64,000 nt of DNA from Candidatus Staskawiczbacteria bacterium RIFOXYB1_FULL_37_44 (GCA_001822065.1 MHPJ01000026.1:5281-69280); one strand, 5' to 3'; shown: positions 2,919-64,000, numbered from the stretch's first letter. A program made the numbers and translations. The notes: generated by a model from the letters alone, not told the origin.

Positions 2919-4070
2919 ATGAAAATACTTGCAATAGAAACATCTTGCGATGATACCGGAGTGGCAATTTTAGAAGTATCGAACCCGCCTTCGCAAAGTT
3001 TCGGCGAGGCAAGGCCCGTTTTTAGCGTTTTATCAAATAAAATTGCTTCGCAAATTGAAATTGGAAAAAAATACGGAGGAGTTTATCCGATGATGGCAAA
3101 AAGAGAGCATGAAAAAAATTTGGCGCCAACTTTACAGACAGCATTAAAAGAAGCAAAAGTAATAGAAAAAGGTATAAACTTAATTGCGGTTACAAACGGG
3201 CCGGGGCTGGAGCCTTGTTTGTGGGTTGGAGTAAATTTTGCAAAAGATTTGGCAAAAAAATGGAATATTCCAATAGTTCCTGTAAATCACATCGAGTCCC
3301 ACATCTTGGTAAACTTACTGTCATTGCGAGGAGGACAGCAGTCCGACGTGGCAATCCAGTTCCCAGCAATCGCACTTGTTGTAAGCGGCGGGCACACACA
3401 ATTAATTTTGGTTGAAAAAATAAAAAAATATAAAATTCTTGGCGAAACAAGAGATGATGCGGCCGGAGAATGTTTTGATAAATGCGCAAAAATTTTAGGA
3501 TTGGAATATCCGGGTGGTCCAATTATTTCCCAGCTCGCCTCAAACGCTGTCATTCCCAGCTTGACTGGGAATCCAGAGTCCGTGCACAAACCCCTAGATT
3601 CCCGCTTTCGCGGGAATGACATACATCTTCCCAGACCAATGCTTAACACAAAAGATTATGATTTTAGTTTCTCCGGTTTAAAAACCGCCGTTCTGTATCA
3701 CCACAAAAAACAAGATGAAAAAACACAGAAATCAAAAAAATATATTGCAGAAATGGCAGCAGAAATACAGCAAGCCATAATTGATGTTTTGCTAAAAAAA
3801 ACAATAAAAGCCGCAAAAGATTATAAAGTAAAATCAATAATTCTGGGCGGAGGCGTTTCAGCCAACACAGAACTTCGCAAACAATTTCAGTCTGCCGCAT
3901 ATCGTCATTGCAAGGGCGAAGCCCGAAGCAATCTACGCCTAATTTATCCTCCGACAGATTTAAGCACAGATAACGCAGTAATGACCGCCATCACCGGCTA
4001 TTTCCATCGCAATAAAAAAACCGCCTGGCGCAAACTCAAAGCTGACGCTAATTTACGAATCGGAGAATAA
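2919..4070 (+). CDS. tsaD: tRNA N6-adenosine threonylcarbamoyltransferase TsaD (Kae1/YgjD family) carrying three in-frame repeat-derived insertions
   Basis: MKILAIETSCDDTGVAI, VSGGHT and SGGV motifs. About 45 aa longer than typical; the extra segments map onto family A/B repeats at 3318-3358, 3547-3623 and 3903-3933. Confidence 0.85.
   Translation: MKILAIETSCDDTGVAILEVSNPPSQSFGEARPVFSVLSNKIASQIEIGKKYGGVYPMMAKREHEKNLAPTLQTALKEAKVIEKGINLIAVTNGPGLEPCLWVGVNFAKDLAKKWNIPIVPVNHIESHILVNLLSLRGGQQSDVAIQFPAIALVVSGGHTQLILVEKIKKYKILGETRDDAAGECFDKCAKILGLEYPGGPIISQLASNAVIPSLTGNPESVHKPLDSRFRGNDIHLPRPMLNTKDYDFSFSGLKTAVLYHHKKQDEKTQKSKKYIAEMAAEIQQAIIDVLLKKTIKAAKDYKVKSIILGGGVSANTELRKQFQSAAYRHCKGEARSNLRLIYPPTDLSTDNAVMTAITGYFHRNKKTAWRKLKADANLRIGE
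3318..3358. repeat. family B half-element inside tsaD, in frame (encodes SLRGGQQSDVAIQ)
   Basis: GTCATTGCGAGGAGG...GACGTGGCAATCCAG. Confidence 0.8.
3547..3623. repeat. composite family A-variant plus A element inside tsaD, in frame (encodes ...SLTGNPESVHKPLDSRFRGNDIH)
   Basis: GTCATTCCCAGCTTGACTGGGAATCCAGAGT followed by CTAGATTCCCGCTTTCGCGGGAATGACA. Confidence 0.8.
3903..3933. repeat. family B-like element inside tsaD, in frame (encodes YRHCKGEARSN)
   Basis: CGTCATTGCAAGGGCGAAGCCCGAAGCAATC. Confidence 0.6.
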
Positions 4071-26034: not shown

Positions 26035-26117
26035 TGTCATTGCGAGGAGCCCGCAGGCGACGTGGCAATCTAGAGTATGTGATAAAACTCTGGATTCCCG
26101 CTTTCGCGGGAATGACA
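26035..26117. repeat. composite family B half plus family A element filling the uvrB-ruvA divergent intergenic region
   Basis: TGTCATTGCGAGGAGCCCGCAGGCGACGTGGCAATCTAGAGT ... CTCTGGATTCCCGCTTTCGCGGGAATGACACC. Confidence 0.9.
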
Positions 26118-27235: not shown

Positions 27236-28474
27236 ATGATAATTAAAAGTTTAGTTAAAAAAATAATAGGAAAAAATTTGTTGAGCCTTTATCATTTTAA
27301 GCTGGCTTTGCTGGGAGCTTTTTTATTTGGTTTTCCAGGGTATAGTAAAAATTTTAAAATTATTGGAGTTACCGGAACCAGCGGGAAATCAACAACATGT
27401 GATTTAATTGTGCGAATTTTGGAAGAAAATGGAGAAAAGGTTGCCTCTGTCTCAACAATACGGTTTAAAATTGGAGAAAAAGAATGGGAAAATAAATATA
27501 AAATGACTATGCCCGGCCGTTTTGTAATTCAAAAATTTTTAAGCCAAGCAAAAAATGCCGGATGTAAATTTATTGTTTTAGAAGTTACTTCAGAGGGCAT
27601 AAGGCAATTTAGGCACAAGTTTATAAATTTTGATACAGCGGTTTTTACAAATTTAAGTCCGGAGCATATTGAGTCTCACGGCGGGTTTGAAAATTACAGA
27701 AATGAAAAATTAAAGTTATTTAAAATAACAAAAAATATTCATATAATAAACGCCGATGATAAAAACTCAAAGTATTTTTTAGATATTCCTGCAAAAAAGA
27801 AAATCAGTTTTAGTTTTAAAGATGCAGAAAATTACGACTTTAAATTAAATTTAATTGGCGATTTTAATATTTTAAATGCTTTGACCGCAATTTCTGTTGC
27901 CAGAGCTTATGGCATTAATTTTGAAGTTTGTAAAAAAGCGCTTGAAAAAGCAAAAGGAATTCCAGGCAGAATGGAAGTTATTTCAAATCCGCCAGCTGGC
28001 GGACCAAAAGTTATTGTTGACTACGCTCATACGCCAGAGCAACTTGAAGCCGTTTATAAGGCTCTGGATTCCCGCTTTCGCGGGAATGACACGGGCAGGC
28101 TTATTTGTGTTTTAGGAAGTTGCGGCGGAGGCAGAGACAAATGGAAAAGACCGGTTTTGGGAAAAATTGCAGAAAAATATTGCAAGGAAATAATTATTAC
28201 AAACGAAGATCCATATGACGAAAATCCAAATTCGATTATGGACGAAATCGAATCTGGATTTTTAAAAACTCGAAATTCGAAATTCGAAATTCGAAATTAT
28301 GAGAAAATTTTAGACAGAAAAGAGGCAATAAAAAAAGCAATTAATATTGCAAAACAAGGGGAAACTGTTATAATCACGGGCAAAGGGTCAGAGCCTTGGA
28401 TGTGCATTAAAAATGGAAAAAAAATACCATGGAGCGACAAGCAAATCGCAAAAGACGCGCTAAATAAAATTTAA
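27236..28474 (+). CDS. murE: Mur ligase family protein, MurE-like (start trimmed to MIIKSL)
   Basis: GVTGTSGKSTT P-loop, DYAHTPEQLEAV and a C-terminal Mur ligase domain. Three in-frame inserts: CCGCCAGCTGGCGG at 27989-28002, family A at 28064-28092 (LDSRFRGND), heptamers at 28269-28298 (RNSKFEIRN). Confidence 0.65.
   Translation: MIIKSLVKKIIGKNLLSLYHFKLALLGAFLFGFPGYSKNFKIIGVTGTSGKSTTCDLIVRILEENGEKVASVSTIRFKIGEKEWENKYKMTMPGRFVIQKFLSQAKNAGCKFIVLEVTSEGIRQFRHKFINFDTAVFTNLSPEHIESHGGFENYRNEKLKLFKITKNIHIINADDKNSKYFLDIPAKKKISFSFKDAENYDFKLNLIGDFNILNALTAISVARAYGINFEVCKKALEKAKGIPGRMEVISNPPAGGPKVIVDYAHTPEQLEAVYKALDSRFRGNDTGRLICVLGSCGGGRDKWKRPVLGKIAEKYCKEIIITNEDPYDENPNSIMDEIESGFLKTRNSKFEIRNYEKILDRKEAIKKAINIAKQGETVIITGKGSEPWMCIKNGKKIPWSDKQIAKDALNKI
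28064..28092. repeat. family A element in frame in murE
   Basis: CTGGATTCCCGCTTTCGCGGGAATGACAC. Confidence 0.9.
28269..28298. repeat. four tandem TCGAAAT heptamers in frame in murE
   Basis: CTCGAAATTCGAAATTCGAAATTCGAAATT. Confidence 0.85.
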
Positions 28475-43539: not shown

Positions 43540-43569
43540 CTGGATTCCCGCTTTTGCGGGAATGACACT
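43540..43569. repeat. family A element (T variant in loop), intergenic
   Basis: TCTGGATTCCCGCTTTTGCGGGAATGACAC. Confidence 0.85.
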
Positions 43570-45023: not shown

Positions 45024-45983
45024 TTATTTTGTTTTGTTTAATGGCGGATAAAGCTGTTTGTCAATTGTTCTTTCAAAGCAAACCCTGCCTGCAGCATGAT
45101 CCCAATTTTGGTTATAACTGTCAGGCACGCCGGCAATTGGAAAAGCTCTTTTTGTTATGTCTTTGTTATTTTGTGAAAACTTGTTAAAGTTAGCGCACAA
45201 TTCAAAAGACAAATTAGTTGCATCTTTTACAGAAAATTCATACGGTTGTCTTGTTTGCGGATCTGTTGGAGCTTTAAATCCGGAAATTGCATCGTTTAAA
45301 TCTGCCAGAGAATTGGGCAATGCCTCTTTTCTCTGCCAATAATTTACAATCTGCGACTGAATATTAGATAAATCATTTACTCTTTGTTGGTCAAACTGGG
45401 CCAATCTGACGGAAGTTGGCGAACCAATCACAAAAAATGCCCCAACAACAACCGCTGAAACCAAAACACTGGTTGTCCATGCAAAATATTTTGCCAATTT
45501 TGTGGGGATTTCCCGCCTAACATCATCTAAATAATATCCAAAAATAATTCCAGCCACCAAAATTATTGATAATGCTTTTAAAATAAACCGCACAGTAACC
45601 TCTCCTCCCAAAAAAGCATTAATTACAAAAATTAAGTCCCCAATAATTACCAAAGAAGCAATAAACAAAGTTAGATAAATCAGCCATTTTCTAATTTTAG
45701 ATTCTCTTACAACCGCTTCTTTGGCATAAATTTTATTCAAATACCACGAAACAGCAATAAAAACCGGAAAAACAATTATTATTGCCGAAACATTAAACCT
45801 TATGAGCGACAGCATATAATCTCCCCGATAAGCGTCTAAAGCGTCCGGGGAAAAACTATTTATAAATTGCCACAAAAGCGTGACAAAACTTACCGCGCTC
45901 CAATAAAGCGTGACCACTGCCAATAAGTGCAAAAACAAATCCCTTGGTATATTCCTTTTTATTATTTGATTTTCTTGTTCCAT
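45024..45983 (-). CDS. hypothetical membrane protein with periplasmic C-terminal domain
   Basis: 319 aa, 6 or more TM segments. Confidence 0.4.
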   Translation of the reverse strand: MEQENQIIKRNIPRDLFLHLLAVVTLYWSAVSFVTLLWQFINSFSPDALDAYRGDYMLSLIRFNVSAIIIVFPVFIAVSWYLNKIYAKEAVVRESKIRKWLIYLTLFIASLVIIGDLIFVINAFLGGEVTVRFILKALSIILVAGIIFGYYLDDVRREIPTKLAKYFAWTTSVLVSAVVVGAFFVIGSPTSVRLAQFDQQRVNDLSNIQSQIVNYWQRKEALPNSLADLNDAISGFKAPTDPQTRQPYEFSVKDATNLSFELCANFNKFSQNNKDITKRAFPIAGVPDSYNQNWDHAAGRVCFERTIDKQLYPPLNKTK

Positions 45984-46048: not shown

Positions 46049-46579
46049 TTATATTCTTTTTACTGTTTTTAAAAATAAAAATGCTATTGCTGCGCCCGCA
46101 ATTGCTGTAGCTAATTGCGGCCAGCTTATCATTAAAAATACGTTTTTGGCGATTCCATGCAAAATAGAATTTGCCAAAATTGTTCCGGCCGAAAAAATAA
46201 AAATATATTTTATTATTGCCGCCGGAATTGCCGCAGCCCAGAAATTGGGGGGTCCGACCCCCCAATTTTTTATTGTTACAAAAACCAAGATTAACAATGC
46301 ATTACCGGTCATTATAAATGGAATCATTGGGGCAATAGCCAAAGGCAAAAGCCCGGTATAAAGCGAAATTAAACTTGGAACTAAGCATAATAAAAAAGCT
46401 GCCTCAATTCCCATAATGCTTGCTGAAATAAAAAGCAAAGCATTTACAATTGACCCCGTAATTAATTGATTTCCAAAATAGGGAGCTACAACCGCAACTG
46501 CTAAAAACCCGCAAAATGCCAAACTTTTTGTCACTATTTTACTAATATTCAGCGAAATAACATTTTCTTGTTCTTCCAT
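46049..46579 (-). CDS. small polytopic membrane protein (possible ECF-type S component or other small transporter)
   Basis: 176 aa with 5-6 TM. Last gene of the NUDIX-NDT operon, 8-nt gap. Confidence 0.35.
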   Translation of the reverse strand: MEEQENVISLNISKIVTKSLAFCGFLAVAVVAPYFGNQLITGSIVNALLFISASIMGIEAAFLLCLVPSLISLYTGLLPLAIAPMIPFIMTGNALLILVFVTIKNWGVGPPNFWAAAIPAAIIKYIFIFSAGTILANSILHGIAKNVFLMISWPQLATAIAGAAIAFLFLKTVKRI

Positions 46580-46587
46580 AAATTTAT

Positions 46588-47031
46588 TTAATTATAAATT
46601 TTATTATTTAAATACGCTTTTATCATTTTCATGCTCGGCGGGAAAACCTTTTCTGGCAGGCTATCTAAATTATACCATTTCCATTCAGTTATTTCCTCTG
46701 GTTCCATTATTTTCGGCTCGCCTTCAAAATTTTCGCACAAAAAACCGATTGTCACATAATGATTATCAGGTACAATTTCGTCTGCGACACTAATTACTTT
46801 TAAATTTTCCGGACTAATTTTAACTCCAATTTCTTCAAGAACTTCTCTACAAGCTCCATCTTTTAAAGTTTCGTGAAAATCAAGTTTACCGCCGGGCATT
46901 GTCCAAGTTCCTTCGCCATGTAAATCACTGCTGGCTTTTTCTGCATCATCATTTCTCTTACCAAGCAAAACTTTATTATCTTTTAAAATCATTATCCCCA
47001 CTCCAACTTTTGCCCTTTGTTTTTCTTCCAT
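46588..47031 (-). CDS. NUDIX hydrolase
   Basis: NUDIX box GGKLDFHETLKDGACREVLEEIGV. Confidence 0.75.
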   Translation of the reverse strand: MEEKQRAKVGVGIMILKDNKVLLGKRNDDAEKASSDLHGEGTWTMPGGKLDFHETLKDGACREVLEEIGVKISPENLKVISVADEIVPDNHYVTIGFLCENFEGEPKIMEPEEITEWKWYNLDSLPEKVFPPSMKMIKAYLNNKIYN

Positions 47032-47035
47032 AATT

Positions 47036-47458
47036 TTATGAAATTAAACTAAGATTATTATTAATAACAATTGGCTGTAAAGCCTCAATTTCTTCTTTGT
47101 ATTGCATTTCTGGTACCGTGTTTAGCAAAAAAATCTTTTTATTATTAACATACGCTTGACCCATTTCTATTAAGGTATTGCCACCGATATAATTTTTAAT
47201 TCCGTTCTTGTCAAAATTCAAAACCAAAACCGCATCACTGTTAAGAATTTCGTTGTAGTGATATCTAATGTAGTCGTGCTCAATTTTAACTTTGGCGTGT
47301 TCTTTTTGCATTCTTTCCCAAAGCTCCGGCAGTTTGCCTGCGGCTCGGGCAACATAATGTTCGTGCAACTCGCATTCGTGTCCCAACGCCTTTAATTCAT
47401 CCCTATATTCAACCATCTCTTTGCAAAAATAAGAACTGCCAACAATTGCTATCTTCAT
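47036..47458 (-). CDS. nucleoside 2-deoxyribosyltransferase-like protein (NDT/LOG-like Rossmann fold), paralog 1
   Basis: MKIAIVGS N-terminal glycine motif and C-terminal GGNTLIEMGQAYVNNKKIFLL (G..ExGxA..K with catalytic-type Glu). Confidence 0.55.
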   Translation of the reverse strand: MKIAIVGSSYFCKEMVEYRDELKALGHECELHEHYVARAAGKLPELWERMQKEHAKVKIEHDYIRYHYNEILNSDAVLVLNFDKNGIKNYIGGNTLIEMGQAYVNNKKIFLLNTVPEMQYKEEIEALQPIVINNNLSLIS

Positions 47459-47465
47459 ACTATTG

Positions 47466-47873
47466 TTAATCTATTTTAGATAAATCTCCATTTAAAGTTA
47501 TAGAATCAAGCCCGATTACTTCCTCATAGTGCGGATGTTTCTCTGTTATTGGATTTAAAAAATATATCTTTTTGTTTAAAAAGAAGGCAACCGATAATTC
47601 CATTAAAGTATTTGAACCAAAATAACCAGTTATGCCTTTTTTCTCTTTATTAAATATCAAAACTGCGTCAGAATTTTCTATTTTTCTAAAATGATTTTTC
47701 GTAAAACTTGGTTTCATTTCTAAAAACTTTTCTCTTCCATAATCATTCTGATACTGTTCCTCAGTAACTAAAGGTTCAGGAGCAAAAACTTCAAAACCCT
47801 TACTTTTCAAAAACTCCATCGCCTCGCCCATTTCTTTAGCAAATGTACAACTTCCACATATTGTAATTATTAT
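47466..47873 (-). CDS. NDT-like paralog 2, apparent non-AUG (AUA/AUU) start
   Basis: The listed ATG ORF lacks the N-terminal motif. The in-frame upstream sequence encodes IITICGSCTFAKEM, matching MKIAIVGSSYFCKEM of paralog 1. C-terminal GSNTLMELSVAFFLNKKIYFL. Confidence 0.45.
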   Translation of the reverse strand: MIITICGSCTFAKEMGEAMEFLKSKGFEVFAPEPLVTEEQYQNDYGREKFLEMKPSFTKNHFRKIENSDAVLIFNKEKKGITGYFGSNTLMELSVAFFLNKKIYFLNPITEKHPHYEEVIGLDSITLNGDLSKID

Positions 47874-47878
47874 ATTTT

Positions 47879-48310
47879 CTAAACTTTTAAGCGTTCTTTT
47901 ATTTTACTAATATCTCCGTTCAAAATAATTGGCTTCATATGCATAACCTCAACCCAATATCTTGCAGTTTCCTTTGGTGGCGGCGGATATAACAAGAATA
48001 TCTTTTGTTTCAAATAATATGCCAACCCGAGTTCAATTAAAGAATGAGAACCGATGTAGCCGTGCGTGCCATCCTTTGGGTGGTTCAAGAGCAAAATAGC
48101 ATCGCAATTTTCCTGAATATCCATACAAGATTTCATAATATCTGTCCTTTCGCAATGGTCCATATCCTCATTTAATTTCAAATGAGGTTTTTCAAAACAA
48201 TCATGAGTGTCTGGGGCGTAATCTGCTTCAAAACCCATATCCTCCAAATCTTTTCTTGTTTTAATTATTTCTAAGGCAAAACTCATACTGCCGGCAATAA
48301 AAATTTTCAT
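47879..48310 (-). CDS. NDT-like paralog 3
   Basis: MKIFIAGSMSF...GSHSLIELGLAYYLKQKIFLL. Confidence 0.55.
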   Translation of the reverse strand: MKIFIAGSMSFALEIIKTRKDLEDMGFEADYAPDTHDCFEKPHLKLNEDMDHCERTDIMKSCMDIQENCDAILLLNHPKDGTHGYIGSHSLIELGLAYYLKQKIFLLYPPPPKETARYWVEVMHMKPIILNGDISKIKERLKV

Positions 48311-48313
48311 GGT

Positions 48314-48781
48314 TTAAATAATTTTTAATTCTTTTAACCAGTCATACCAAATTGGTTCTATGCCTGGTGATTTTTCCCAATCCTTATTTGAAATATTTCC
48401 TTTTTTGTACTCCTCGGTTTTTTTAGCTAATTTATTTATTAAATCTTTTGAAAAAAATTTTGCTTGTTTTGTTTCATCTTCGCTTCTTTTTATTTCTCCC
48501 TCGGCCTCGATTTCATAAATTTTCCAATAGTGCCATGTTCCATTTTCCCTACGACACGGATTTTCCTTCCGGCCTTCAGCAGTAAGTTTCATATTTTTTA
48601 CAGACAATCCAACTTCTTCCTTTAATTCCCGCTTCGCCGCATCTTCAAAAGAAATGTCTGTGTCAACATGGCCTGCTGGCGGAGCAAATCCAAATGGAAA
48701 TCTCTTTCTTTCAACAAGTAAAATATTTTCACCGCTCCAAACCAACATTCCTACACTTGTGTGGTCACATTGTTTTATCAT
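48314..48781 (-). CDS. NUDIX hydrolase (second)
   Basis: NUDIX box AGHVDTDISFEDAAKRELKEEVGL. Confidence 0.75.
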   Translation of the reverse strand: MIKQCDHTSVGMLVWSGENILLVERKRFPFGFAPPAGHVDTDISFEDAAKRELKEEVGLSVKNMKLTAEGRKENPCRRENGTWHYWKIYEIEAEGEIKRSEDETKQAKFFSKDLINKLAKKTEEYKKGNISNKDWEKSPGIEPIWYDWLKELKII

Positions 48782-48810
48782 ATTTCAACGCATTATTTAT
48801 TACACGGACA

Positions 48811-48849
48811 CTGGATTGCCACGCCCCGTGCGCGGGGCTCGCAATGACA
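48811..48849. repeat. family B right-half element with internal GCCCCGTGCGCGGGGC hairpin
   Basis: CTGGATTGCCACGCCCCGTGCGCGGGGCTCGCAATGACA. Confidence 0.8.
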
Positions 48850-49152
48850 CTAAGTTAAAACTAAGATAAAGCTGGTGTTTTGGGAGGATTTTAGGGAATG
48901 CGCAATATTTTTTTCCATTTTGATAAATACGCCCGGTAGCATTTCAATATTTTCTCCGGCATAAGTAAAAACGCCCTTTCCCTCAATTACATAAACAAAA
49001 CCCTGTTTTGTTGAAGTATGCTCTGAAATTTCTGTGCCTTCTGCCATAGAAAACAAAGTAATATCAAGCTTTTCGCTTTTCTCAATTACTTTGCTCAAAA
49101 TTCCTCCGGCAGAATATGAAATATTTTCTTTTAAATTCATTTGCTTTGTCAT
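48850..49152 (-). CDS. cupin-domain small protein
   Basis: Double-stranded beta-helix pattern (G..EH..T..GFVYVIEGKG). Confidence 0.5.
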   Translation of the reverse strand: MTKQMNLKENISYSAGGILSKVIEKSEKLDITLFSMAEGTEISEHTSTKQGFVYVIEGKGVFTYAGENIEMLPGVFIKMEKNIAHSLKSSQNTSFILVLT

Positions 49153-49265
49153 TCCGGGCTCGACCCGGAATCTATAACTTTGTTTATTCCACGGACTCTG
49201 GATTCCCGCTTTCGCGGGAATGACACACCTGTAGCGGTTTTTTGCCTCGAGGCAAAAAACCGCTA
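49147..49265. repeat. cluster of family C variant (GTCATTCCGGGCTCGACCCGGAATC), family A copy (49198-49226) and family D palindrome (49232-49265)
   Basis: Three palindromic elements packed between the cupin gene and the ABC transporter gene. Confidence 0.85.
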
Positions 49266-51169: not shown

Positions 51170-51772
51170 TTATTCTAAGATTTTAGTCAAATCTTTTTTA
51201 AACTGATTAAAATCCTGAAATACAATGCTTTTTATTCCAAGGGCTTCGGCTGATTTTGTGTTTCTTTCTTTGTCGTCAGTAAATACTGCTTCATCTGCTT
51301 TTACATTTAATTTTTTAAGGGCGTGCTGGTAAATCTTTGGGTTTGGTTTTGATATTTTTAAGTTATATGAGTTCACGACGATATCAAATAAATGATAAAT
51401 TTTAAAAACGTTTTTTATTAGGTTTTCCAGTTCTGAATTATAATTTGATAAAATAGCCGTTTTATATTTCTTTTTTAGTTCCCCTATATAATCTATCATT
51501 TCCGGCCTAACACGCACAGTTGATTTTACCTCAAGAAGAATATCATTTAGTTCTTCCGCCGCCAAATTTATTGACGGCTTGGTTTTTTCATAGAACTCAA
51601 AAATAGTCTCGTATTCGGCAAGGTTAGCTCCATGGTTGTATTCGTCCAGGAGCTTTTCAAGCGAGCCATCCTCAAGTGAGTGTTTGATTTTGTGTTTTTC
51701 GTATATTTCTCTATTTCTGGTAACAATAGGTCCGTCAAAATCAAAAATTATTGCTTTAATTTCATTTTTCAT
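51170..51772 (-). CDS. HAD-superfamily hydrolase
   Basis: DxDG motif IIFDFDGPI. Confidence 0.65.
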   Translation of the reverse strand: MKNEIKAIIFDFDGPIVTRNREIYEKHKIKHSLEDGSLEKLLDEYNHGANLAEYETIFEFYEKTKPSINLAAEELNDILLEVKSTVRVRPEMIDYIGELKKKYKTAILSNYNSELENLIKNVFKIYHLFDIVVNSYNLKISKPNPKIYQHALKKLNVKADEAVFTDDKERNTKSAEALGIKSIVFQDFNQFKKDLTKILE

Positions 51773-52008
51773 AAAAATCTTTTATTCGTGAATGCGTACC
51801 CGGAACTTGATTTCAGATACTTTTCAAAATTGTATGCTTTTGCTTTTTCTAAAAAAGCACAATACCAAATTAATTTGTATGGTCTTTTTGAATCAGAATA
51901 TTTTGCATTGCCAGAATTATGTTCTGCCAAACGCCTTTTTAAATCAGAAGTAACTCCAATATATCTACTTTTATCTTTCTCACTTTGCAAAATATATACG
52001 TAAAACAT
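51769..52008 (-). CDS. GIY-YIG nuclease-domain small protein
   Basis: FYVYILQS...YIGVTSDLKRRLAEHN. Confidence 0.65.
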   Translation of the reverse strand: MFYVYILQSEKDKSRYIGVTSDLKRRLAEHNSGNAKYSDSKRPYKLIWYCAFLEKAKAYNFEKYLKSSSGYAFTNKRFL

Positions 52009-52136
52009 AATTTACAGCCCCACTTCGCAAGGCCACACTACGCCAAGGCTTCGCGTGGCATGCTTCGCGGGACACCACTTCGCTTTAAACTTATCATCTA
52101 TTATTATCGGCTATATTTCAATGGTGCTTGCACCGC

Positions 52137-52156
52137 GTAGCTCTGAGTAATCTCAG
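52137..52156. terminator. perfect hairpin GCTCTGAG-taat-CTCAGAGC adjacent to the tRNA-Ala 3' end
   Basis: 8-bp stem, 4-nt loop. Confidence 0.4.
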
Positions 52157-52163
52157 AGCGAAG

Positions 52164-52237
52164 TGGTGGACCTGGGCGGAATCGGACCGCCGCCTCGTCA
52201 ATGCGAATGACGCATAATACCACTTTACTACAGGCCC
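52164..52237 (-). tRNA. tRNA-Ala (anticodon CGC) with encoded CCA
   Basis: Reverse complement: acceptor GGGCCTG/CAGGTCC with G3:U70, anticodon stem CGTCA/TGACG, loop TTCGCAT, discriminator A, CCA. T-loop is TCCGATT (C at position 55, non-canonical). Confidence 0.65.
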
Positions 52238-52277
52238 GAGCCACATTTTGCTTTCGCAAAAGTGGAATTTTCGATTT

Positions 52278-52685
52278 TCATTTATCAATTTTCAAATATT
52301 TTTCATTTTCCAAATCTTCATTGGCGCAAAAAACAGTGTAGTCAATTAGAATTTCCTCTCCTTTTTCGATATCCCTTACAGCAACATCATTATCTCCAAT
52401 TGTTTTAATATTTGGATTTTTTGAATGGTTTATAAATCTTGTGTCGTCTAAACATAAACAATGCAATCCGTCTTGTTTGTCTTTATATGCATACTTTTTA
52501 ATTTGCCTAAAACTTTCTTTGCTTAATTCTTTTTCCATTTGTTTCCACTGCTCTTCAAAATATTTTGCAATTCCAAAATTATCGTTATTTTTTATAACAA
52601 TTGTTCCTTTTTTAATATCTTCATTGGCAAACAATCCAATGCCTTCAATTTTTGAAACGCCAAGGTTTGTCTTCACTAAAATCAT
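52278..52685 (-). CDS. SET-domain protein (putative protein-lysine methyltransferase)
   Basis: GIGLFANEDIKKGTIV, TRFINHSKNPNI (RFINHSCxPN-type) and GEEILIDY motifs. Confidence 0.6.
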   Translation of the reverse strand: MILVKTNLGVSKIEGIGLFANEDIKKGTIVIKNNDNFGIAKYFEEQWKQMEKELSKESFRQIKKYAYKDKQDGLHCLCLDDTRFINHSKNPNIKTIGDNDVAVRDIEKGEEILIDYTVFCANEDLENEKYLKIDK

Positions 52686-52715: not shown

Positions 52716-52744
52716 TCTGGATTCCCGCTTTCGCGGGAATGACA
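52716..52744. repeat. family A element, intergenic (preceded by TGTCATA half)
   Basis: CTCTGGATTCCCGCTTTCGCGGGAATGACA. Confidence 0.9.
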
Positions 52745-52852: not shown

Positions 52853-52923
52853 TCGGCGCACTCAGAATCGAACTGAGGCCGCAGACTCCCGAAGTCTGCA
52901 TACTACCACTATACGATGCGCCG
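52853..52923 (-). tRNA. tRNA-Pro (anticodon CGG)
   Basis: Reverse complement: C1:G72 acceptor CGGCGCA/TGCGCCG, anticodon stem CAGAC/GTCTG, loop TTCGGGA, T-arm CTCAG/TTCGATT/CTGAG. Confidence 0.75.
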
Positions 52924-60608: not shown

Positions 60609-60636
60609 CTGGATTCCCGCTTTCGCGGGAATGACA
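60609..60636. repeat. family A element, intergenic
   Basis: CTGGATTCCCGCTTTCGCGGGAATGACA. Confidence 0.9.
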
Positions 60637-63339: not shown

Positions 63340-64000
63340 ATGGATTTAACTTCTCCAACAAACATAAAAGAACTTTTGGCAAAATACAAAACAAGTCCGT
63401 CAAAAAGGCTTGGCCAGAATTTTTTGATAGATAAAAATGTTTTAGATAAAATTATTACATCGGCCGATCTAAGGCCAAGTGATACCGTTTTAGAAATAGG
63501 GCCGGGTATTGGAACACTCACGCAAGAACTTGCTAAAAGCGCAGGACAAGTAATTGCAATTGAAAAAGACCGCGCAATGGTTGAAATTTTATCCGAAACT
63601 TTAAAAGACTATAAAAACACAGAAATTATTCAAGGCGACATTTTAAAATTAAGCTTCGCGTCATTGCGAGGAAAGAGCGAAGCGACTGACGAAGCAATCC
63701 AGAGTTATAGATTGCCGCGTCGCCTACTGGCTCCTCGCAATGACGAAGTCAAAAATTACAAAGTTGTCGCAAATATACCGTACTATCTTACATCGCCATT
63801 GATTCGAAAATTTCTGGAGCTGAATCCGCCAGATGGCGGACCGCCAAGCGAAATGGTTTTAATGATACAAAAAGAAGTTGCCCAACGCATTTGCGCCAAA
63901 CCACCGGAAATGTCTTTACTGGCGGTTTCGGTGCAATTTTACGCAGATGCAAAAATTGTTTCTTATGTCTCAAAAAATTGCTTCTGGCCGGCCCCCAAAG
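63340..64000 (+). CDS. ksgA: 16S rRNA (adenine1518/1519-N6) dimethyltransferase KsgA/RsmA, 5' part (3' end outside the window) with in-frame family B insertion
   Basis: RLGQNFLID, LEIGPGIGTLT, NIPYY motifs. Insert SFASLRGKSEATDEAIQSYRLPRRLLAPRNDEV corresponds to the repeat at 63660-63744. Confidence 0.8.
   Translation, partial: MDLTSPTNIKELLAKYKTSPSKRLGQNFLIDKNVLDKIITSADLRPSDTVLEIGPGIGTLTQELAKSAGQVIAIEKDRAMVEILSETLKDYKNTEIIQGDILKLSFASLRGKSEATDEAIQSYRLPRRLLAPRNDEVKNYKVVANIPYYLTSPLIRKFLELNPPDGGPPSEMVLMIQKEVAQRICAKPPEMSLLAVSVQFYADAKIVSYVSKNCFWPAPK
63660..63744. repeat. family B full element in frame in ksgA
   Basis: GTCATTGCGAGGAAAGAGCGAAGCGACTGACGAAGCAATCCAGAGTTATAGATTGCCGCGTCGCCTACTGGCTCCTCGCAATGAC. 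Confidence 0.9.

Follow-up and report, generated by a model that had tools for sequence, protein, structure and literature searches.

Enzymes that act on the N-glycosidic bond of nucleotides and nucleosides have been described in several settings. DNPH1 (Rcl) is a 2'-deoxynucleoside 5'-phosphate N-hydrolase and a nucleotide pool sanitizer for hmdUMP, and it is the precedent for a sanitizing N-glycosidase (PMC10603095). MilB, BcmB, and BlsM are CMP (hydroxymethyl-CMP) N-glycosidases found in antibiotic biosynthesis clusters; LOG and PpnN, which belong to SLOG and carry the motif PGGxGTxxE, convert a nucleoside monophosphate (NMP) to a base and ribose 5-phosphate; and the nucleoside 2'-deoxyribosyltransferases (NDTs), among them LlNDT, CtNDT, and EfPDT, correspond to PF05014. 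Here, we describe a cluster of NUDIX hydrolase genes and genes for NDT-like proteins (NDTLs) on the minus strand of a 64,000-nucleotide (nt) stretch from Candidatus Staskawiczbacteria bacterium RIFOXYB1_FULL_37_44, a groundwater bacterium with a very small genome (GCA_001822065.1 MHPJ01000026.1:5281-69280). The whole stretch is referred to as the window, and positions are counted from its first letter. An earlier note, made from the sequence of the window alone, had described the range 46049-49152 as a tightly spaced operon and a candidate module for nucleotide salvage, nucleotide sanitizing, or defense. We find that the core of the cluster is, on balance, probably a nucleotide clean-up module in which the NDTLs act as N-glycosidases that complete the work of pyrophosphatases specific for noncanonical nucleoside triphosphates (NTPs).

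The general view is that Patescibacteria and DPANN archaea subsist on nucleotides and nucleosides taken from hosts or from debris. Modified and damaged bases are part of this supply, and little is known of how they are kept out of the cell's own DNA and RNA. For the proteins described here, the fold and the likely chemistry were known already from other systems; what seems to be new is the NDTL family itself, its own set of invariant residues, and its coupling to five pyrophosphatase families. We found no description of a dedicated bacterial N-glycosidase partner for house-cleaning pyrophosphatases in the searchable literature, with an earlier mention in a 2015 superfamily survey being possible. 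Likewise, nothing specific on the NDTL family or on an association of NDT-like and NUDIX proteins in Patescibacteria was present in the literature searched.

The core of the cluster comprises five genes, all on the minus strand: NUDIX-A (48314-48781; 155 amino acids [aa]), NDTL1 (47879-48310; 143 aa), NDTL2 (47466-47873; 135 aa), NDTL3 (47036-47458; 140 aa), and NUDIX-B (46588-47031; 147 aa). They are followed by a gene for a 176-aa membrane protein (TM176; 46049-46579). All six open reading frames (ORFs) described in the earlier note were recovered at its coordinates and on the same strand. The gaps between consecutive genes are 3, 5, 7, 4, and 8 nt, and the tight spacing of 3 to 8 nt claimed for the cluster therefore holds if NDTL2 starts at 47873. 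Beyond this layout, the interpretation in the earlier note was right at its core, and it was wrong or unproven on Pfam membership, the transporter link, defense, the exact gene order, and a recent triplication, each of which is taken up below.

The three NDTL genes are true paralogs. Their products are 33 to 37% identical to one another (33 to 35% for NDTL1 against the other two), with pairwise BLASTP E values of 2e-21 to 9e-25, which is far above chance, and a family profile search showed them to be the sole three copies in the window. The motifs that had been quoted for them are present, namely, MKIxIxGS and G(G/S)xxLxE(L/M)(G/S)xA...K(K)I(F/Y)xL, with ELSVA in NDTL2 where the others have E(M/L)GxA. 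NDTL1 scores 133 bits against the family profile and carries Phe at position 4 and the segment ...GYIGSHSLIELGLA.... The proposed assignment to PF05014, PF15891, or LOG was not borne out by profile searches. Against PF05014 (cutoff, 28.8 bits), NDTL1 gave an E value of 0.18, NDTL2 scored 18.1 bits, and NDTL3 scored 14.5 bits, all below the cutoff; across 46 family members, 22 gave weak matches (best E value, 2.9e-4) and none reached it. NDTL1 matched PF15891 below the cutoff (E value, 0.0018), and the NDTLs show neither a match to the LOG/SLOG profile (PF03641) nor the full PGGxGTxxE motif with its catalytic Arg. No match was found for NDTL1 to NDTL3 in NCBIfam, PADLOC, or PHROGs, and the family is absent from these collections as well as from Pfam and the Protein Data Bank (PDB).

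The family is nonetheless large. Homologs of NDTL3, the member of the main widespread subfamily, form 1,504 clusters at 90% identity; among the 120 best-scoring clusters, none has a precomputed Pfam domain and nearly all that are named are called "hypothetical protein." When 1.84 billion representatives were searched with a profile, 1,581 members (50%-identity clusters) were retrieved at an E value of ≤1e-3 and 968 at ≤1e-10, and at least 545 species-representative genomes encode a member. The records are overwhelmingly from Patescibacteria (Moranbacteria, Falkowbacteria, Nealsonbacteria, Berkelbacteria, and others), with a few labeled as DPANN. One of the latter, an Aenigmatarchaeota-labeled contig (L041, 6508-8357; loci other than the window are given by such numbers), holds an NDTL gene whose product is 59% identical to NDTL3. 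This gene lies directly after genes for ribosomal proteins S4e and L5, and we therefore take the contig to be truly archaeal; the gene suggests interdomain transfer between Patescibacteria and DPANN archaea. In annotated collections, the only match outside the candidate phyla falls in an unannotated part of a 1.3-Mb replicon of Rhizobium leguminosarum (NZ_CP140867.1:883364-883579), with 42.5% identity to NDTL3 over the C-terminal half of the latter (E value, 7e-10).

An AF2 model of the NDTL proteins, based on the 46-sequence alignment, reached a pLDDT of 96.5 and a pTM of 0.90 and has the three-layer alpha/beta Rossmannoid architecture of the NDT fold. A helical insert of ∼40 residues between beta2 and beta3 distinguishes it from the NDTs. 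Foldseek placed the CMP N-glycosidase BcmB (4jen) first, followed by DNPH1 and CtNDT. Within the TIR-DrHyd-SLOG Rossmannoid clade (terms as in PMC9503650), these matches place the family in the deoxyribohydrolase (DrHyd) branch. The NDT/DNPH1/LOG-type fold with a conserved Glu, proposed in the earlier note, is thus supported by the model, the Foldseek search, and the family alignment.

Conservation was scored over 148 NDTL representatives at ≤50% identity, and residues are numbered here according to NDTL3. Asn81 is present in 100% of the representatives, Glu98 and Glu123 are each present in 99%, and Gly92 (98%), Tyr90 (97%), Ala102 (96%), Lys84 (93%), Ser8 (92%, with the remainder nearly all gaps), and Lys107 (91%) complete the near-invariant set, all nine of which are found in NDTL3. 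Glu98 is the predicted equivalent of the catalytic nucleophile, the Glu with which the helix after beta3 begins (LlNDT E98, CtNDT E88, and DNPH1 E104). It falls opposite DNPH1 E104 in an hhalign comparison with the single DNPH1 sequence (a weak match in which only the Glu motif aligned), opposite CtNDT E88 when the 111-sequence profile is used (a match that is not significant), and again on E104 in a profile-profile alignment with 22 DNPH1 orthologs (102 columns; E value, 0.0022). These three independent alignments are weak one by one and mutually consistent. The DNPH1 and LlNDT query sequences were identical to the PDB chains.

Further correspondences include a possible phosphate site. In the profile-profile alignment, the loop C6-G7-S8 after beta1 pairs with DNPH1 C26-G27-S28, and D75 pairs with DNPH1 D88 and is conserved. 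The NDTLs also resemble LOG in having Ser after beta1, Gly at the position six residues before the catalytic Glu (E-6), and Thr at E-3. The LOG phosphate ligands are Ser19, Gly116-Gly118, and Thr119, ahead of Glu122 (PMC4979012), and Ser8 together with G92-G-N-T95-x-x-E98 matches their spacing; the invariant Ser8 and Thr/Ser95 could be LOG-like phosphate binders. The phosphate ligands of the MilB type are Arg23 and Ser97, and the NDTL family has no conserved Arg; in addition, MilB, BcmB, and BlsM belong to antibiotic biosynthesis, whereas the NDTLs stand among house-cleaning genes. The NDTLs have no significant sequence similarity to DNPH1, from which they also differ in a loop before the catalytic helix that is six residues longer and contains the invariant Tyr90 and Gly92. 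Unlike DNPH1, they are prokaryotic (Patescibacteria and some DPANN) and often fused to pyrophosphatases.

The strongest indication of function comes from the genes that accompany the family. We sampled 80 species loci and scanned their 131 immediate same-strand neighbors (within 300 nt) against Pfam, using as a control 131 genes from the same loci that stood four or more genes apart from the NDTL gene. NUDIX domains were found in 29 of the 131 neighbors, followed by Maf (9), CTP_transf_like (7), HD (5), CYTH (3), and Ham1 (2). The control genes contained 2 NUDIX proteins in 131, and Maf, HD, CYTH, and Ham1 were not among the control families listed with at least two members. The enrichment of NUDIX beside NDTL genes has a Fisher P value of 1e-7 (29/131 versus 2/131; counts uncorrected for phylogeny), and that of NUDIX, Maf, HD, CYTH, and Ham1 together has a P value of 5e-11 against a bound of ≤6 controls, in which one hit was granted to each unlisted family. 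Three loci with NDTL3 orthologs illustrate the pattern, reading NUDIX-NDTL-NUDIX-NUDIX; CYTH-Maf-NDTL-HD-Ham1-nucleotidyltransferase; and HD-?-CYTH-Maf-NDTL-phosphoribosyltransferase.

Fusions point in the same direction. Among 33 long members drawn from the 150 best NDTL representatives, the partners were NTPase_I-T/YjjX (9 members), NUDIX (3), MazG (3), and Maf (2). Both domain orders occur for MazG (MazG+NDTL and NDTL+MazG) and for Maf (Maf+NDTL and NDTL+Maf), from which we conclude that these fusions with NDTL arose independently. At two loci (L055 and L057), an NDTL3-type domain is encoded in one 301-aa ORF together with a complete domain of the NUDIX-A type (E value, 1e-64 to NUDIX-A of the window). 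The pairing of NDT-like and NUDIX proteins in the window is therefore no accident, as it recurs across a sample of ∼80 species and as fusions, one of them with the NUDIX-A type itself. Taken together, the recurring partners NUDIX, Maf, MazG, Ham1, and NTPase_I-T are the classic house-cleaning families of noncanonical-NTP hydrolases, and Maf enzymes favor modified NTPs (PMC3899018). Neighbor or fusion pairs of this kind are found across bacteria with such small genomes and in at least one archaeon whose genome is likewise reduced.

Both NUDIX proteins of the window are ordinary members of PF00293, as had been claimed, scoring 66.3 bits (NUDIX-A) and 75.9 bits (NUDIX-B) against a gathering score of 21.1 bits. 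Their similarity to each other is confined to the Nudix box. In NUDIX-A, the box as read from the translation is GHVDTDISFEDAAKRELKEEVGL, in which the replacement of the first box Glu by Ile is the sole deviation, and the protein ends in a conserved C-terminal tail (...SPGIEPIWYDWLKELKII). The box of NUDIX-B, GKLDFHETLKDGACREVLEEIGV, fits the consensus GX5EX7REUXEEXGU perfectly. The closest solved relative of NUDIX-A is 2yyh, an Aquifex "8-oxo-dGTPase domain," and the solved structures closest to NUDIX-B, a MutT/NUDT1/NUDT15-like hydrolase, are AtNUDT1, NUDT15, MutT, and MTH1; for both proteins, the nearest relatives are enzymes that sanitize NTPs. Against the MutT 8-oxo-dGTPase equivalog of NCBIfam (TIGR00586/NF008044; cutoff, 97.9 bits), NUDIX-B scored 53 bits and NUDIX-A scored 17.7 bits, and the NCBIfam mutt model matched NUDIX-B under its cutoff (3.2e-14). 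Because neither protein reaches an NCBIfam equivalog cutoff, their substrates are not assignable. Orthologs of both recur beside NDTL genes: those of NUDIX-A adjoin them at L001, L065, L068, and L020, and those of NUDIX-B directly follow NDTL3-type genes at L001, L010, and L042.

A nucleotide-sanitizing or salvage role, one of the options in the earlier note, is the best reading of the fold, the genomic context, and the fusions. By analogy with the reactions of DNPH1 on hmdUMP, MilB and BcmB on (hydroxymethyl-)CMP, and LOG on AMP derivatives, such a module would work in two steps. NUDIX-A and NUDIX-B, being of the MutT/NUDT1 kind, would turn aberrant or surplus (deoxy)nucleoside triphosphates, or nucleoside diphosphate derivatives (NDP-X), into the monophosphate and pyrophosphate. 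An NDTL would then cleave the N-glycosidic bond of the NUDIX product, with Glu98 as the nucleophile and a Glu98-linked intermediate, releasing the free base and (deoxy)ribose 5-phosphate; the second step would be identical to the reaction of LOG and PpnN. As a result, the bad nucleotide would be barred from rephosphorylation and both sugar phosphate and base would be recovered. The three old paralogs would serve different bases or sugars. The fold, the conserved Glu, the conserved gene neighborhood, and the fusions are what the data show directly; from there, the hydrolytic chemistry, the 5'-monophosphate class of substrates, and this division of labor are inferred.

In its fullest form, which we advance only tentatively, this proposal would make the NDTLs a new class of nucleotide N-glycosidases that use a Glu nucleophile with Asn81, Tyr90, and Glu123 and have His or Tyr in place of the general-acid Asp. 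On several independent occasions, by operon or by fusion, they would have been joined to NTP pyrophosphatases of five unrelated folds, giving a two-step pathway ("dephosphorylate, then deglycosylate") that would be a hallmark of ultrasmall, scavenging Patescibacteria and would have been exchanged with DPANN. Its paralogs would be split by base or sugar, and it would sanitize scavenged modified nucleotides while returning ribose 5-phosphate and bases. From the present analysis, a large family of "hypothetical" proteins gains a concrete, assayable hypothesis, that of a prokaryotic counterpart of DNPH1 wired to NUDIX, Maf, MazG, Ham1, and YjjX. If true, it would supply the missing second step of the classic house-cleaning scheme, improve the annotation of thousands of candidate-phyla genomes, and provide N-glycosidases or transglycosylases, both small and stable, that might find application in nucleoside biocatalysis.

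Several observations weigh against a nucleotide N-glycosidase assignment. Homology to characterized enzymes is weak at the sequence level (≤18 bits against PF05014), and searches of PDB sequences with two NDTL family profiles (46 and 111 sequences) gave nothing significant. The probability of the profile-profile match to DNPH1 is low (13%), which we attribute to the shallow DNPH1 profile, built from vertebrate orthologs only. At position 4, opposite DNPH1 Tyr24 and LlNDT Y7, the catalysis-supporting Tyr is not kept: the family has Thr (34%), Val (28%), or Ala (17%), with Ala in NDTL3, Thr in NDTL2, and Phe in NDTL1. Position 67, opposite the general acid/base Asp in the helix before beta3 (DNPH1 D80; LlNDT D72), is His in 56% and Tyr in 27% of representatives; five residues earlier, D62 is Asp in 61% and Asn in 18%. 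As far as the alignments indicate, the nucleophile would therefore be retained while the helper residues differ. The DNPH1 phosphate ligand S98 has no clear NDTL counterpart either, since hhalign puts it opposite G86 in a gapped loop and the E-6 position is the invariant Gly92. In the profile-profile alignment, the invariant Glu123 comes no more than two residues from where DNPH1 has its trans-acting Ser128' (for DNPH1 residue roles, see PMC10603095). A carboxylate at this place is better suited to contact with a 5'-OH or metal than with a bare phosphate, which makes nucleosides possible substrates. The corresponding trans contact in NDTs is that of Asn123' to the 5'-OH. Finally, some neighbors, such as SerRS, AspRS, and a RibL-like nucleotidyltransferase, may reflect synteny only.

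The last of the residue arguments leads to the most serious alternative, namely, that the NDTLs are nucleoside 2'-deoxyribosyltransferases or hydrolases for salvage and that NUDIX, HD, and HAD proteins supply them with nucleosides by dephosphorylation. The best structural matches include bona fide NDTs, PF05014 is the only recurring Pfam family (weakly, in the 22 of 46 members noted above), and Glu123 lies near the DNPH1 residue that contacts the 5' group from the neighboring subunit in trans. The HD neighbors and a HAD hydrolase 2.4 kb upstream of the cluster could serve as nucleotidases, and the NDT bb0426 in the reduced genome of Borrelia offers a precedent (PMC2764106). We nevertheless regard this explanation as unlikely. 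The NDT signature (Tyr at G-3; Asp72/Asp92) is missing, the invariant Ser that follows beta1, like the G-x-x-T-x-x-E loop, recalls the phosphate sites of LOG and DNPH1, and direct fusion to NTP pyrophosphatases, whose product is an NMP, leaves no nucleotidase step; unlike what NDTs would need, the partners yield nucleotides rather than nucleosides. It is less probable still that the NDTLs cut a nicotinamide-ribose-type bond in NAD or NMN, in the manner of their TIR and ADP-ribosyl cyclase relatives, with the NUDIX proteins splitting the pyrophosphate of NAD, ADP-ribose, or FAD. One locus (L085; 7143-7961, plus strand) encodes a 272-aa nucleotidyltransferase-NUDIX fusion with the motif GTFDLLHPGH, directly upstream of an NDTL gene. 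We take its nucleotidyltransferase to be RibL/FAD-synthetase-like, and together with the CTP_transf_like neighbors it hints at a dinucleotide (FAD/NAD) link. Set against this, the fusion partners Maf, MazG, and NTPase_I-T and the neighbor Ham1 act on NTPs and not on NAD, both NUDIX proteins are nearer to MutT, NUDT1, and NUDT15 than to NudC or ADP-ribose pyrophosphatases, and no TIR Pfam match was found among NDTL1 to NDTL3 or the 46 family members.

A comparably small chance attaches to the idea that the NDTLs are not enzymes at all but sense nucleotides or serve as regulatory subunits, tuning the pyrophosphatases fused to them or encoded next to them. The TIR-DrHyd-SLOG clade does include inactive ligand-binding members (PMC9503650), the canonical helper Tyr and Asp are absent, and NDTL2 is without a canonical start codon and carries Ser at the Gly100 position. 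The conservation pattern is active-site-like, however, with the nucleophile Glu at ≥99% and N81, Y90, E123, S8, and K84 near-invariant across ∼150 divergent representatives. Defense, the remaining option of the earlier note, would make the cluster an anti-phage or mobile module of nucleotide-centric conflict that depletes or modifies nucleotides upon infection. The cluster does lie in a variable stretch, bounded on one side by the gene for the CCA-adding enzyme and on the other by the TM176-DUF5671 pair, in which GIY-YIG and SET genes are found as well, and NUDIX-B matches the PADLOC candidate PDC-S07. The NDTLs themselves match nothing in PADLOC or PHROGs. Searches of 50,697 phage records and of IMG/VR found no relatives, and plasmids yielded a single partial match. 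Their orthologs stand mostly among housekeeping genes (SerRS, AspRS, GreA, DnaG, and ribosomal proteins), and no sensor or effector partners are present. We therefore reject the defense and mobile-element interpretation, to which we would assign a very slight chance at most.

Returning to the clean-up module, its gene order in relatives bears on how the cluster arose. All five genes in exactly this order are found only in the population from which the window comes (three other assemblies, L087 to L089), so that the gene-order conservation named as a check in the earlier note holds for sub-blocks of the cluster and not for the whole. Such blocks are NUDIX-A-NDTL3-NUDIX-B with a third NUDIX gene (L001), NUDIX-A-NDTL1-NDTL3 (L065), NDTL1-NDTL3 (L078), NDTL3-NUDIX-B-NDTL1 (L042), and Maf-NDTL2-NDTL3 (L007). 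Among the 80 loci, 69 contain one NDTL copy, 10 contain two, and 1 contains five. The latter, from Berkelbacteria (L020; 6299-8845), is the largest expansion seen: four NDTL genes in an overlapping tandem run are followed by a NUDIX-A-type gene and then a fifth NDTL gene, the five products being 140, 135, 145, 138, and 129 aa in length. Most family representatives are NDTL3-like, NDTL1-like proteins form a smaller distinct clade, and NDTL2-like proteins are narrow in distribution. NDTL1 orthologs (160 to 250 bits) occur at L065, L078, and L020, each time with an NDTL3-type gene in tandem. We reject a recent local triplication, since the paralogs are ∼35% identical whereas NDTL3 orthologs in other classes are 56 to 91% identical, and since the NDTL1 and NDTL3 types are old, distinct subfamilies whose genes stand in tandem in more than one lineage. 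The window's cluster therefore looks as if it had been assembled from old modules.

The start of NDTL2 requires comment. Its first codon in the 135-aa reading (47873-47871, minus strand) is ATA, and no canonical start lies there; ORF finders and public gene calls begin the gene at the ATG at 47831, which gives a 121-aa protein without strand beta1 and the invariant Ser. In L007, the closest other species (NDTL3 91% identical), the orthologous codon is ATG, and across the 13 codons that separate the two candidate starts there are five synonymous and no nonsynonymous differences. The longer reading is therefore the evolutionarily constrained one, with the N-terminal strand and Ser8 under constraint at the protein level. 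The ATA is also present in three other assemblies of the same population. NDTL2 may initiate at this ATA, 5 nt past the NDTL1 stop codon, by a noncanonical or coupled mechanism, or it may have lost its start very recently.

The genes that flank the core are less constant. TM176 is probably cotranscribed with the cluster. The first good terminator-like hairpin on this strand follows the next gene, DUF5671 (45024-45983, minus strand). The AF2 model of TM176 (pLDDT, 88) has a fold like that of the S-components of energy-coupling factor (ECF) transporters, with ThiT and RibU as the best PDB matches in Foldseek (TM score, 0.55 to 0.71; probability, 1.0). TM176 scored 18.3 bits against PF12822 (cutoff, 30.7 bits), and several homologs have a precomputed match to this family; as modeled, it is a plausible small transporter subunit. 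The small-transporter claim of the earlier note is thus upheld for the fold and not for a link to the module. None of the 80 other NDTL loci has a TM176 homolog, and TM176 homologs are few (178 found). Their partner is DUF5671 rather than NDTL or NUDIX; the two form a conserved pair in Staskawiczbacteria-like genomes (three genomes; loci include the window, L090, and the P0144 contig) while the upstream genes vary, and we reject it as a conserved component of the module. Within the TM176 coding sequence, a perfect GC-rich palindrome with a 14-bp stem, AGAAATTGGGGGGTCCGACCCCCCAATTTTT (46240-46270), encodes the loop NWGVGPPNF, a segment that varies between homologs and is modeled with a lower pLDDT; the palindrome could represent a small palindromic element inserted in frame.

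Between the CCA-adding enzyme and TM176-DUF5671, genomes differ in content, with ABC-2 transporter genes in one and DUF2207/NUDIX in another. In the window, the cluster belongs to a long same-strand run that reads CCA-adding enzyme, SET, GIY-YIG, HAD, ABC exporter, cupin, NUDIX/NDTL cluster, DUF5671, and NusA. The ABC protein is of the exporter type, with fused permease and ATPase. The cupin gene (48850-49152, minus strand; 100 aa; Cupin_2, 33.3 bits) falls within the range 46049-49152 and was absent from the description in the earlier note; no homolog was found at the other 80 NDTL loci, and it is not a conserved partner. Farther upstream, the run contains genes for a stand-alone GIY-YIG protein (79 aa) and a SET-domain protein (135 aa; 51769-52685, minus strand, for the pair). 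Beside them lie two tRNA genes (52167-52237 and 52853-52923). An Rfam scan for a riboswitch or RNA leader that could name a ligand returned two tRNAs nearby and nothing else.

The window is also rich in dispersed REP-like palindromic repeats of the form GTCATT(CC/GC)-hairpin-(GG/GC)AATCCAG, of which GTCATTCCCGCGAAAGCGGGAATCCAG is the commonest unit; 24 matches were counted in 64 kb, compared with 0.2 expected. None lies within the NUDIX/NDTL cluster. Three copies bracket the cupin gene (48811-48848, minus strand; 49148-49171, plus strand; and 49198-49224, minus strand), one filling the 68-nt gap before NUDIX-A and another overlapping the cupin ATG. Further copies include those at 1185-1211, 3320-3359, 17083-17109, 26090-26116, 28064-28090, 43540-43566, 52717-52743, 60609-60635, and 63660-63702.

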